64,000 nt of DNA from NCBI RefSeq assembly GCF_030013595.1, contig NZ_CP122768.1; one strand, 5' to 3'. The position numbers and the translations under genes are program-made. Numbering within the stretch: position 1 is the first letter of the stretch; each line of letters opens with the position of its first letter. This DNA is from Escherichia coli (GTDB lineage Bacteria; Pseudomonadota; Gammaproteobacteria; Enterobacterales; Enterobacteriaceae). The notes beneath the pieces are model-generated. The model was not told where the DNA came from, did not search any database, and saw only the letters and a program-made list of their open reading frames with translations. Below are positions 21,655 to 25,392 of this stretch, in pieces.

Positions 21655-22539
21655 ATGAAGCCTTTTTTGCGCTGGTGTTTCGTTGCGACAGCACTTACGC
21701 TTGCAGGATGCAGTAATACTTCCTTGCGTAAAAGTGAAGTCCTCGCGGTACCATTGCAACCGACTTTACAGCAGGAAGTGATTCTGGCACGTATGGAACA
21801 AATCCTTGCCAGTCGGGCTTTAACCGATGACGAACGCGCACAGCTTTTATATGAGCGCGGAGTGTTGTATGATAGTCTCGGTCTGAGGGCATTAGCGCGT
21901 AACGATTTTTCGCAAGCGCTGGCAATCCGACCGGATATGCCTGAAGTATTCAATTACTTAGGCATATATTTAACGCAGGCAGGCAATTTTGATGCTGCCT
22001 ATGAAGCGTTTGATTCTGTACTTGAGCTTGATCCAACTTACAACTACGCGCACTTGAATCGCGGGATCGCATTATATTACGGCGGTCGTGACAAGTTAGC
22101 GCAAGATGATCTGCTGGCGTTTTATCAAGACGATCCCAATGATCCTTTCCGTAGTCTGTGGCTTTATCTCGCCGAGCAGAAGCTCGATGAGAAGCAGGCT
22201 AAAGAAGTGTTGAAACAGCACTTCGAAAAATCGGATAAGGAACAGTGGGGATGGAACATTGTCGAGTTCTACCTGGGCAACATTAGCGAACAAACGTTAA
22301 TGGAAAGGCTCAAGGCGGACGCAACGGATAACACCTCGCTCGCTGAGCATCTCAGTGAAACCAACTTCTATTTAGGTAAGTACTACCTAAGTCTGGGGGA
22401 TTTGGACAGCGCCACGGCACTGTTCAAACTGGCGGTTGCCAACAACGTTCATAACTTTGTTGAGCACCGATACGCATTGTTGGAATTATCGCTCCTGGGC
22501 CAGGACCAAGATGACCTGGCAGAATCGGACCAGCAATAG
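21655..22539 (+). CDS. nlpI: Lipoprotein NlpI (TPR repeats)
   Basis: 294-aa ORF with lipobox LTLAGC and TPR-like repeats. Confidence 0.93.
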
Positions 22540-22645
22540 CTGACGTACACATCAGCCCGTAATCTTTTTTGATTGCCATCACCTTAACGGGTGAGGGCGT
22601 TGTTGTTCGTTAATACACCTACTTTGAGCCGGTTCACACTTTTCA

Positions 22646-22726
22646 ATGAAAATTGCTGATCAATTTCATGATGAGTTATGTAGACTGGCCGCCATTAATT
22701 TTGAGGCACACGTACTACATGGCTGA
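22646..22726 (+). CDS. yrbN: 26-codon small ORF in the deaD leader, overlapping the deaD start (YrbN-like)
   Basis: atg aaa att gct gat ... cat ggc tga = [26 protein letters not shown]; matches my recollection of the 26-aa K-12 small protein YrbN; below the ORF-track length cutoff. Confidence 0.45.
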
Positions 22727-24608
22727 ATTCGAAACCACTTTTGCAGATCTGGGCCTGAAGGCTCCTATCCTTGAAGCCCTTAACGATCTGGGTTACGAAA
22801 AACCATCTCCAATTCAGGCAGAGTGTATTCCACATCTGCTGAATGGCCGCGACGTCCTGGGTATGGCCCAGACGGGGAGCGGAAAAACTGCAGCATTCTC
22901 TTTACCTCTGCTGCAGAATCTTGATCCTGAGCTGAAAGCACCACAGATTCTGGTGTTGGCACCGACCCGCGAACTGGCGGTACAGGTTGCTGAGGCAATG
23001 ACGGATTTCTCTAAACACATGCGCGGCGTAAACGTGGTTGCCCTGTACGGCGGCCAGCGTTATGACGTGCAATTACGCGCCCTGCGTCAGGGGCCGCAGA
23101 TCGTTGTCGGTACTCCGGGCCGTCTGCTGGATCACCTGAAACGTGGCACTCTGGACCTTTCTAAACTGAGCGGTCTGGTTCTGGATGAAGCTGACGAAAT
23201 GCTGCGCATGGGCTTCATCGAAGACGTTGAAACTATTATGGCGCAGATCCCGGAAGGTCATCAGACCGCTCTGTTCTCTGCAACCATGCCGGAAGCGATT
23301 CGTCGCATAACCCGCCGCTTTATGAAAGAGCCGCAGGAAGTGCGCATTCAGTCCAGCGTGACTACCCGTCCTGACATCAGCCAGAGCTACTGGACCGTCT
23401 GGGGTATGCGTAAAAACGAAGCACTGGTACGTTTCCTGGAAGCGGAAGATTTTGATGCGGCGATTATCTTCGTTCGTACCAAAAACGCGACTCTGGAAGT
23501 GGCTGAAGCTCTTGAGCGTAACGGCTACAACAGCGCCGCGCTGAACGGTGACATGAACCAGGCGCTGCGTGAACAGACTCTGGAACGCCTGAAAGACGGT
23601 CGTCTGGACATCCTGATTGCGACCGACGTTGCGGCCCGTGGCCTGGACGTTGAGCGTATCAGCCTGGTGGTTAACTACGATATCCCGATGGATTCTGAGT
23701 CTTACGTTCACCGTATCGGTCGTACCGGTCGTGCGGGTCGTGCTGGCCGCGCGCTGCTGTTCGTTGAGAACCGCGAGCGTCGTCTGCTGCGCAACATTGA
23801 ACGTACTATGAAGCTGACTATTCCGGAAGTAGAACTGCCGAACGCAGAACTGCTGGGCAAACGCCGTCTGGAAAAATTCGCCGCTAAAGTACAGCAGCAG
23901 CTGGAAAGCAGCGATCTGGATCAATACCGCGCACTGCTGAGCAAAATTCAGCCGACGGCAGAAGGTGAAGAGCTGGATCTCGAAACTCTGGCCGCCGCAC
24001 TGCTGAAAATGGCACAGGGTGAACGTACTCTGATTGTTCCGCCAGATGCGCCGATGCGTCCGAAACGTGAATTCCGTGACCGTGATGACCGTGGTCCGCG
24101 CGATCGTAACGACCGTGGCCCGCGTGGTGACCGTGAAGATCGTCCGCGTCGTGAACGTCGTGATGTTGGCGATATGCAGCTGTACCGCATTGAAGTGGGC
24201 CGCGATGATGGTGTTGAAGTTCGTCATATCGTTGGCGCGATTGCTAACGAAGGTGACATCAGCAGCCGTTACATCGGTAACATCAAGCTGTTTGCTTCTC
24301 ACTCCACCATCGAACTGCCGAAAGGTATGCCGGGTGAAGTACTGCAACACTTTACGCGCACTCGCATTCTCAACAAGCCGATGAACATGCAGTTACTGGG
24401 CGATGCACAGCCGCATACTGGCGGTGAGCGTCGTGGCGGTGGTCGTGGTTTCAGTGGCGAACGTCGTGAAGGCGGTCGTAACTTCAGCGGTGAACGCCGT
24501 GAAGGTGGTCGTGGTGATGGTCGTCGTTTTAGCGGCGAACGTCGTGAAGGCCGCGCTCCGCGTCGTGATGACTCTACCGGTCGTCGTCGTTTCGGTGGTG
24601 ATGCGTAA
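22719..24608 (+). CDS. deaD: Cold-shock DEAD-box RNA helicase DeaD (CsdA)
   Basis: Start placed at [13 protein letters not shown] (629 aa); motifs [28 protein letters not shown] repeats in the C-terminal tail. Confidence 0.93.
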
Positions 24609-24685: not shown

Positions 24686-25392
24686 CAGAAAACCCCCAGC
24701 TAGGCTGGGGGTTCCGGAAAGCTTTCAGCTTTGAGCCAGTTATTAAAACCCCTTTTGATTTGTTAAAACACCTTGCGGTCTGGCAACTGCAAGTGTCAAA
24801 CAAGAAATCAAAAGGGGGTCCCAATGGGGGACGAAAAGAGCTTAGCGCACACCCGCTGGAACTGTAAATATCACATAGTTTTTGCGCCGAAATACCGAAG
24901 ACTGGCGTTTTACGGAGAGAAGCGTAGGGCGATAGGCAGTATTTTGAGAAAGCTGTGTGAGTGGAAAAGCGTACGGATTCTGGAAGCAGAGTGCTGCGCA
25001 GATCATATCCATATGCTTGTGGAAATCCCACCCAAAATGAGCGTATCCGGCTTTATGGGATATCTGAAAGGGAAAAGCAGTCTGATGCTTTACGAGCAGT
25101 TTGGGGATTTGAAATTCAAATACAGAAACAGGGAGTTCTGGTGCCGAGGGTACTATGTCGATACGGTGGGTAAGAACACGGCGAAGATACAGGACTACAT
25201 AAAGCACCAGCTTGAAGAGGATAAAATGGGGGAGCAGTTATCGATTCCATATCCGGGCAGCCCGTTTACGGGCCGTAAGTAACGAAGTTGAATGCAAATG
25301 TCAGATCGTATGCGCCTGTTAGGGCGCGGCTGGTAACAGAGCCTTACAGGCGCATTTGAAAAACCTCCGGCTATGCCGGAGGATATTTATTC
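24686..25392 (+). mobile_element. IS200 insertion sequence (IS200/IS605 family), about 0.7 kb, boundaries approximate
   Basis: Contains an intact 152-aa TnpA nearly identical to my recollection of Salmonella IS200 TnpA; a perfect hairpin ccccagc-tag-gctgggg (24694-24712) and a second stem ccccttttgatt...aatcaaaagggg that would sequester the tnpA RBS are the IS200 left-end hallmarks; no terminal inverted repeats, as expected for this family. Confidence 0.8.
24824..25282 (+). CDS. tnpA: IS200 transposase TnpA (HUH Y1 single-strand transposase)
   Basis: MGDEKSLAHTRWNCKYHIVFAPKYRR...HIHMLVEIPP...: HxH (HUH) motif and catalytic Tyr region; 152 aa. Confidence 0.9.
   Translation: MGDEKSLAHTRWNCKYHIVFAPKYRRLAFYGEKRRAIGSILRKLCEWKSVRILEAECCADHIHMLVEIPPKMSVSGFMGYLKGKSSLMLYEQFGDLKFKYRNREFWCRGYYVDTVGKNTAKIQDYIKHQLEEDKMGEQLSIPYPGSPFTGRK

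Follow-up and report, generated by a model that had tools for sequence, protein, structure and literature searches.

yrbN, a small reading frame across the deaD start: a predicted masking hairpin and a candidate element for translational coupling

Introduction

The gene for the DEAD-box RNA helicase DeaD (CsdA) of Escherichia coli begins inside another reading frame: a 26-codon frame occupies the end of its long 5' leader and stops a few bases beyond the helicase start codon. Does this frame encode a protein with a task of its own, does it serve the start of the helicase gene, or does it merely lie on an RNA element that matters for other reasons? The earlier note on this DNA had proposed that translation of the frame could be coupled to deaD initiation and that the arrangement is relevant to cold-shock control. 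Here, we follow up that proposal computationally within the window, by which we mean the whole 64,000-nt stretch of E. coli DNA that was analyzed, and across the Enterobacterales.

Results

The Frame Is the Known Gene yrbN

The sequence and the RefSeq annotation agree with the anatomy given in the earlier note, a 26-codon frame in the deaD leader that ends at 22726 and overlaps, out of frame, the deaD ATG at 22719. RefSeq places yrbN at positions 2747–2827 of the locus, corresponding to 22646–22726 of the window, and starts deaD at locus position 2820, corresponding to 22719; the deaD ATG lies in a different frame from yrbN, and the 8 nt common to both genes are ATGGCTGA (Table 1). Read codon by codon on the plus strand, the frame is ATG AAA ATT GCT GAT CAA TTT CAT GAT GAG TTA TGT AGA, followed by CTG GCC GCC ATT AAT TTT GAG GCA CAC GTA CTA CAT GGC TGA. 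It is the known small gene yrbN and not a new one: an exact look-up finds the peptide under the name YrbN in NCBI and UniRef, the NCBIfam equivalog model NF033440 (small_YrbN) matches it from position 1 to 26 of 26 (76.3 bits, E 9.4e-22, cut-off 33), and in sequence, length and position upstream of and overlapping deaD it is identical to yrbN of E. coli K-12 (3307853–3307933). Pfam gave no match for the peptide.

The discovery of yrbN is credited to Hemm et al. 2008 by a later preprint (bioRxiv 10.1101/2021.03.08.434349), which had also already put forward the 8-nt overlap with deaD and a possible role as leader peptide; the same preprint cites Hemm 2008 for the epitope-tag evidence of YrbN synthesis. 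The gene has thus been annotated since 2008, and the frame itself adds nothing new. It had been called invisible, which holds for a length-filtered track of open reading frames only, as the public annotation carries yrbN. In the literature, we came across neither a description of a hairpin at the deaD start nor a test of coupling between yrbN and deaD, and what the present analysis adds is a structural model, together with the caution that the conserved residues of YrbN largely mirror constraints on the RNA.

Table 1. Coordinates, in the window, of the features discussed in the text
Feature	Position	Strand	Basis or remark
deaD promoter: -10 box TATGAT (21868-21873) and main TSS (~21881, -838)	21868..21881	+	inside nlpI; PMC7430678
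Near-invariant block TTTGAGCCGGTTCACACTTTTCAATGAAAAT	22623..22653	+	helix A 5' strand and SD-less A/U-rich yrbN start
Helix A (predicted), 5' strand GCCGGUUCACA	22628..22638	+	RNAalifold; 8-18 nt upstream of yrbN AUG
yrbN CDS	22646..22726	+	26 codons plus TGA; RefSeq WP_010723222.1, NCBIfam NF033440
Hairpin B (predicted), 5' arm AGUUAUGUAGACUGGCC	22674..22690	+	yrbN codons 10-16; near-invariant including third positions
Near-invariant block GTTATGTAGACTGGCCGCC	22675-22693	+	alignment
Helix A (predicted), 3' strand UGUAGACUGGC	22679..22689	+	RNAalifold; overlaps hairpin B 5' arm
Invariant GAGGCAC	22703-22709	+	alignment; followed by invariant TACATG at deaD start
deaD Shine-Dalgarno (SD) GAGG	22703..22706	+	within invariant GAGGCAC; 12 nt upstream of ATG
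Hairpin B (predicted), 3' arm GGCACACGUACUACAUGGCU	22705..22724	+	last two SD G, spacer, deaD AUG, codon 2
8-nt stop/start overlap ATGGCTGA	22719..22726	+	yrbN TGA 22724-22726, deaD ATG 22719-22721
deaD (csdA) CDS, DEAD-box RNA helicase	22719..24608	+	RefSeq; DeaD N-terminus conserved across loci

The gene order around the frame is pnp-nlpI-yrbN-deaD-mtr, and RefSeq has yrbN downstream of nlpI and on the same strand as deaD. A stretch of 501 nt around yrbN is found at an identity of at least 99% in 5,424 of 5,426 complete E. coli genomes. Between deaD and mtr, the window holds an open reading frame for an IS200-type Y1 transposase (24773–25282, plus strand; PF01797, 126 bits), which is missing from strain N3, where mtr follows 153 nt after deaD. 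The deaD frame itself stays open upstream of the accepted ATG (22653–22718, plus strand), with in-frame ATGs at 22668 and 22671 and a 651-aa version started by TTG among the open reading frames; RefSeq starts the gene at 22719, and given this open frame, a gene caller could over-extend DeaD into yrbN.

Conservation across Enterobacterales

We collected 80 deaD loci from different Enterobacterales species, ranging from Escherichia to Morganella, Providencia, Xenorhabdus, Erwinia and Sodalis, of which 79 had enough sequence upstream of deaD to be usable. The yrbN ATG was present and the frame open in all 79, at the same position upstream of deaD, which bears out the expectation that the small frame would be conserved in other enterobacteria. 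The overlap is a different matter: it is common but not universal. The 8-nt form occurs in 43 of the 79 loci and, in addition, in two loci (L046 and L052) that read CATGACTGA, while 20 others have an 11-nt overlap (ATGACTACTGA). In the remaining form, seen at 14 loci from Pantoea, Erwinia, Mixta and Rosenbergiella, from Dickeya, and from Sodalis/Acerihabitans, a short frame of 18–19 codons ends before the deaD ATG, between -16 and -11, at or just before the deaD Shine-Dalgarno (SD) sequence. What holds throughout is the neighborhood of the stop codon, which falls between -16 and +11 relative to the deaD ATG in 79/79 loci, never before codon 18 and never before the end of the 5' arm of the hairpin described below (hairpin B).

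At the base of the order and in outgroups, the pattern reaches its limits. In Plesiomonas, a basal member of the Enterobacterales represented by a MAG (L082, around 1225–1330), the core motif is kept and the frame is only 10 codons long, cut by a TAA inside the core. Neither the yrbN frame nor the hairpin is found at two loci that share the pnp-nlpI-deaD synteny and have about 70% DeaD identity, and in Psychromonas, the gene context of deaD differs and no homologous hairpin B was found. As hairpin B was not predicted in Plesiomonas either, these outgroups define the range of the structure rather than prove it. A separate observation comes from the secondary endosymbiont of Trabutina mannipara (298-kb genome; L086, 1440–1503), which has lost nlpI and kept deaD: only 78 nt separate pnp from deaD, and they contain a decayed yrbN core and an SD relic, TAGGACTGGTATCCATTAAAATGAGACAC, and no open reading frame.

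The initiation signals of the two genes differ. The deaD SD can form a duplex of -5.6 kcal/mol with the anti-SD, and its spacing to the start codon is 9–12 nt across genera. Upstream of yrbN, we found no usable SD, the best candidate being a split duplex of -3.9 kcal/mol far upstream. A second small frame with a GTG start (22591–22659, plus strand) overlaps the yrbN start, and loci of Pantoea, Erwinia, Izhakiella and Rosenbergiella carry equivalents started by ATG (M[RK]A[FL]LFV..LSRFTLFDEND). This frame probably arises as a by-product of the invariance of the nucleotide block. The same block contains, by eye, a sigma-70-like promoter (TTGAGC-N18-GAAAAT), which we rejected: no start appears at this place in published TSS maps, and downstream of -838 promoter activity was looked for in the preprint and not found (bioRxiv 10.1101/2021.03.08.434349).

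Peptide and Nucleotide Constraint

If the frame is kept, is the peptide kept as well? Within the variable segment, codons 3–10, the yrbN frame is free of stops in all 39 distinct sequences, whereas stops interrupt the other two frames in 24/39 and 29/39; judged by composition, the chance of the yrbN frame staying open is about 0.55 per sequence. Selection on the residues is far less evident. The Nei-Gojobori pN/pS of the variable codons is 0.66 in the yrbN frame and 0.81 and 0.92 in the shifted frames, while the adjacent deaD codons, used as a control, give 0.13 and, when shifted, 2.8 and 3.2. Residues 3–8 of YrbN vary freely, and the C-terminal 7–8 residues have been lost in three lineages.

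The conserved part of the peptide behaves in another manner. In codons 10–16, encoding E-L-C-R-L-A-A, the third position is at least 95% conserved in six of the seven codons, whereas among deaD codons for invariant residues, only 7.2% have a third position conserved to that degree (43 genera; mean 0.70). We found no constraint at the amino-acid level and no arrest motif in YrbN that could be separated from constraint on the RNA, the conserved residues sitting on synonymously frozen nucleotides. The comparative evidence thus indicates that the yrbN frame is kept translatable, that its peptide hardly matters and that the constraint on its core acts on the nucleotides. YrbN resembles a ramp for the delivery of ribosomes more than it does a small protein with a function of its own.

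These numbers weigh on the idea that YrbN is a small protein acting in trans, for example as a partner or modulator of DeaD or the degradosome, and that the overlap merely reflects compact packing of the operon. The gene is named, modeled and conserved across the Enterobacterales, it was co-regulated with the helicase gene in RNA-seq of Erwinia amylovora, and small proteins beside DEAD-box genes exist elsewhere, such as ynaL next to dbpA (PMC6001520). Yet, a pN/pS so near the shifted-frame values and the freedom of residues 3–8 are hard to reconcile with such a function, the last 7–8 residues were removed independently in Erwiniaceae, Dickeya and Sodalis/Acerihabitans, and the only strongly conserved residues are encoded by synonymously frozen nucleotides; add the lack of a Pfam match and the loss of the frame from a reduced endosymbiont genome that retains deaD, and a trans-acting YrbN appears very unlikely.

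Some conservation at the start of the frame may likewise have its origin in the RNA. The yrbN start AUGAAAAU (22646–22669 region) is the reverse complement of AUUUUCAU in codons 6–8. In folds of Serratia and Pantoea, an A/U-rich hairpin (GAAAAU/AUUUUC) is predicted over the yrbN AUG, and it is absent in Morganella; such a hairpin could be the reason why Phe7 is conserved without selection on the peptide.

A Predicted Hairpin over the deaD Start

The yrbN core (22674–22690) is complementary to the deaD initiation region (22705–22724), and the two are predicted to form a hairpin of about 50 nt, hairpin B. It was the minimum free energy (MFE) structure in all 34 distinct sequences folded (mean dG -18.0 kcal/mol, mean z -2.9). 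Against dinucleotide shuffles, the z-scores were -3.8 for E. coli, -4.1 for Serratia, -3.2 for Pantoea and -3.7 for Dickeya, with 0 of 200 shuffles as stable; in Morganella, folded in a longer context of 79 nt, the sequence was no more stable than its shuffles (z -0.47). Taken as a whole, the 192-nt region did not exceed its shuffles in stability either (z -0.52), and the hairpin B segment alone stands out. RNAalifold on a restricted alignment recovers the hairpin, and 95.5% of the alignment cells form standard pairs in it, compared with 10–53% in controls slid by 1–3 columns, a measure that is inflated as the structure was derived from the same sequences.

With both arms frozen, hairpin B offers little covariation. 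A two-sided change, from U-A/U.G to G.U, is seen at one pair: in Sodalis and Acerihabitans, TTA in yrbN has become GTA alongside the change of deaD codon 2 to TCT. Since both arms are near-invariant, another sequence-specific constraint, such as a site for a protein, an sRNA or an RNase, is possible.

The predicted consequence for deaD is severe. Folded within 180 nt, hairpin B has a mean probability of 0.72; when a mask the size of a ribosome covers the yrbN start, this rises to 0.98 and the deaD AUG is left with an unpaired probability of 0.02. Opening the region from -15 to +5 would cost 17.6 kcal/mol at deaD, the highest value of 39 annotated genes in 40 kb, for which the median is about 6, and in that comparison, the unpaired probability of the deaD start codon is 0.00. 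The yrbN start, lying in an A/U-rich stretch, is by the same calculation ordinary and accessible at 5.1 kcal/mol. According to these models, then, the initiation site of deaD is sequestered by pairing with the interior of yrbN. Second among the 39 genes is truB at 15.3 kcal/mol, whose ATG overlaps the rbfA stop (L087, 15002–15403 and 15403–16347), and the folding model makes coupling by unmasking, with the same signature as in yrbN-deaD, likely for rbfA-truB too.

Predicted Helix A and Its Balance with Hairpin B

On the wide alignment, RNAalifold proposed a different pairing, helix A, of GCCGGUU.CAC (22628–22638) with GUA.GACUGGC (22679–22689). The changes within it are mostly one-sided and preserve the pairs, with G.U becoming A-U in four genera and U.G becoming U-A in Providencia; in a few sequences, a pair is broken. 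As helix A and hairpin B share the yrbN core, they are mutually exclusive, and in E. coli, their predicted energies are nearly equal (-18.7 vs. -19.2 kcal/mol). The region could therefore toggle between the two states, the role of helix A being one that we infer from folding. Plesiomonas has two additional helix A pairs (A.C to C-G and G.G to G-C), with a predicted energy of -16.5 against -13.2 kcal/mol. Helix A may thus predate the yrbN frame or exist independently of it.

Could such a balance sense temperature? The predicted occupancies of A and B barely shift from 10 to 42 C, hairpin B reaching -32 kcal/mol at 10 C, and with probabilities so near-constant, a thermosensor finds no support in thermodynamics alone. 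A search of the folds and the leader alignment revealed no intrinsic terminator or antiterminator pair after the yrbN frame, and Rfam 15 gave only chance-level matches over the deaD leader (21800–22900; E 0.8–8.6, far below the gathering scores).

The strength of the nucleotide constraint raises the possibility that an RNA element acting in cis (helix A, hairpin B or a site for a protein, an sRNA or an RNase) alone controls the translation, stability or Rho access of deaD, with the yrbN frame a passenger whose translation is irrelevant or incidental. Much of the evidence would fit: the synonymous sites frozen in codons 10–16; the mapping of the conserved residues to RNA features, E-A to the SD, H-G/D to the deaD start and E-L-C-R-L-A-A to the helix arms; the F-H codons, which may pair with AUGAAA as read from single folds; the lack of an SD upstream of yrbN; the retention and extension of helix A in Plesiomonas though the frame is broken there; and the fact that no part of the peptide bears signs of strong selection at the amino-acid level. 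A passenger, on the other hand, would hardly keep an invariant ATG and a frame open in 79/79 loci where the other frames gather stops freely, nor extend, in every lineage of the 79 loci, to the end of the hairpin B 5' arm or beyond; moreover, curated databases treat the product as a real protein, and footprints on the frame are quantifiable (PMC10746267). We regard a purely RNA-based explanation as unlikely, though it has to be taken seriously.

The deaD Transcript and Its Regulation

About 90% of deaD expression comes from the main TSS at -838 (Ojha and Jain 2020, PMC7430678). With this start, yrbN spans positions +766 to +846 of the deaD mRNA, at the 3' end of an 838-nt leader. DeaD regulates its own gene through mRNA stability and Rho-dependent termination, and the in vitro Rho termination products, 400–900 nt long, span the position of yrbN; the gene goes unmentioned in that study (PMC7430678). 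[quoted passage not shown] The construct retains the last 100 nt of the UTR and with it all of yrbN, which starts at -73. As the feedback was lost although yrbN was intact, yrbN is not its carrier and the determinants lie upstream, between -820 and -101; for translation of deaD, the final 100 nt of the UTR suffice. The proposed relevance of the frame to cold-shock control is not upheld by these data, the predicted structures being near-constant from 10 to 42 C and the autoregulatory determinants lying further upstream.

In the yrbN frame, codon 13 is AGA in 42 of 43 genera, and AGA is a rare arginine codon in E. coli. One may ask if yrbN works like the sensory leader peptides tnaC, mgtL and speFL, in that pausing or occupancy by ribosomes gates Rho termination at the deaD start; this would underlie cold induction or the autoregulation of DeaD and is compatible with coupling. 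The codon speaks for it, as does the exposure of the leader to Rho over a range that includes yrbN (PMC7430678), and a 2025 review lists cold-induced Rho antitermination at deaD with the 'exact mechanism undetermined' (PMC12360218). The idea sits badly, however, with the loss of autoregulation in a construct that has all of yrbN (PMC7430678), with the lack of a conserved arrest-type peptide motif separable from RNA constraint, and with an A/B balance predicted to be almost independent of temperature and followed by no terminator/antiterminator pair; we judge it quite unlikely.

Ribosome profiling of E. coli K-12 lists yrbN as a 'previously known sORF' with quantifiable footprints (PMC10746267 Table S8). 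At pH 5.8 against 7.6, the footprints changed significantly and in parallel with the mRNA, the log2 fold change being 1.83 for footprints and 1.81 for RNA and that of translation efficiency -0.09 (PMC10746267); footprints over the 3' end of yrbN could belong to ribosomes that are starting on deaD. There is no mention of yrbN in the Salmonella small-protein census or the RiboReport supplements. A panel labeled 'yrbN_PAIR_0' in the Figure 2 legend of VanOrsdel 2018 (PMC6001520), for a small protein that accumulates after cold shock, was considered as evidence for YrbN and set aside: the text assigns the panel to YnfR, which adjoins another cold-shock gene and not deaD, and the confusing label should not be cited as cold induction of YrbN.

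Two further elements lie upstream of yrbN in the leader. Directly after the nlpI stop codon, at 22541–22551, is TGACGTACACA, which we take to resemble the 'cold box' TGACGTACAGA described in the leaders of cspA, cspB and csdA; an old primer-extension start at -173 (~22546), left unconfirmed by later studies, falls at the same place. The 9-mer TGACGTACA is found at that position in 6–7 of the 80 loci, only close relatives of E. coli, and we rejected the motif as part of the yrbN module, to which it is unrelated. Further downstream, at 22579–22594, a small hairpin UCACC/GGUGA is followed by a U-rich tail to about 22612. Across genera, it has undergone genuine compensatory changes (A-U to G-C, n = 7; C-G to U-A, n = 9) and is followed by GGGCUUUUUUGUUCGUU in most of them; by its predicted form, it looks like an intrinsic terminator or attenuator inside the deaD 5' UTR.

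Discussion

We lean, by a modest degree of confidence, toward yrbN being a cis-acting, translated upstream frame that couples ribosomes into deaD by melting hairpin B. When yrbN is untranslated, the deaD SD and AUG would be locked in the hairpin (about -19 kcal/mol at 37 C). Ribosomes would start at the accessible, A/U-rich yrbN AUG, unwind codons 10–16, that is, the 5' arm, during elongation, and terminate on or beside the deaD start, the E. coli TGA lying 5 nt past the ATG and the stops of the short variants at or just before the SD. The deaD initiation site would thereby be left single-stranded and open to either re-initiation or fresh binding of a 30S subunit.

Coupling of this kind would account at one stroke for the invariant ATG and open frame, the indifference to the peptide and the frozen synonymous sites, as well as for the short variants always stopping after the 5' arm and close to the SD. 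From the folding models we infer that translation of yrbN is either required for deaD translation or stimulates it; helix A would free the deaD start without translation, and coupling thus need not be obligatory. The suggestion in the earlier note that translation of the leader peptide may be coupled to deaD initiation has, in this form, gained support in silico, from the position of the stop codon, the conserved hairpin and the highest opening cost among the genes compared. Its anatomy was right; it was not novel, a leader role having appeared in the 2021 preprint, and the overlap that it rested on is not universal.

A more ambitious version, which we think rather unlikely, would make the last ~100 nt of the deaD leader a bistable device specific to the Enterobacterales, in which helix A closes yrbN and opens the deaD start, hairpin B has the opposite effect, and a peptide-agnostic upstream frame sets the loading of ribosomes. 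Untranslated RNA being a substrate for Rho and RNases, such a device might supply the proximal step that accounts of cold-induced antitermination and of DeaD feedback lack, and DeaD or CspA may remodel the A/B equilibrium.

Whatever the mechanism, the comparative analysis is a warning against inferring the function of a small protein from sequence conservation alone. Coupling by unmasking offers a concrete hypothesis for how translation of a major cold-shock helicase could start from a heavily occluded site, and it supplies a candidate for a proximal element in the control of deaD by Rho and temperature.

Coupling by the unmasking of a sequestered start operates between the coat and replicase genes of the RNA phage MS2 and between rpmI and rplT in the infC operon of E. 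coli. Like those pairs, yrbN and deaD overlap at stop and start on the same strand, the deaD SD and AUG are predicted to be buried against the strand of the upstream frame, and the deaD start is unusually costly to open. Unlike them, yrbN is a 26-codon frame without an SD in a long 5' UTR, and as its product is hardly selected, its behavior would be that of a device dedicated to coupling and not that of a gene for a protein; its start also has a competing helix, the predicted helix A, that may act as a switch. With tnaC-tnaA, mgtL-mgtA and toiL-topAI (PMC12360218, PMC12121999), yrbN-deaD shares a short frame in a long leader ahead of a gene under Rho-dependent attenuation. It differs from them in having no evident motif for sensing a ligand or a stall, in the location of the Rho and feedback determinants of deaD upstream of yrbN (PMC7430678), and in that yrbN abuts the main start instead of lying well upstream of a rut site. 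Finally, the 5' UTR thermosensor of cspA (Giuliodori 2010) provides a precedent for the start of a cold-shock gene proposed to switch between occluded and accessible RNA; the deaD leader departs from it in matching no Rfam family, including any cspA-type model, in a predicted A/B equilibrium that is not sensitive to temperature, and in making an open reading frame part of the device.
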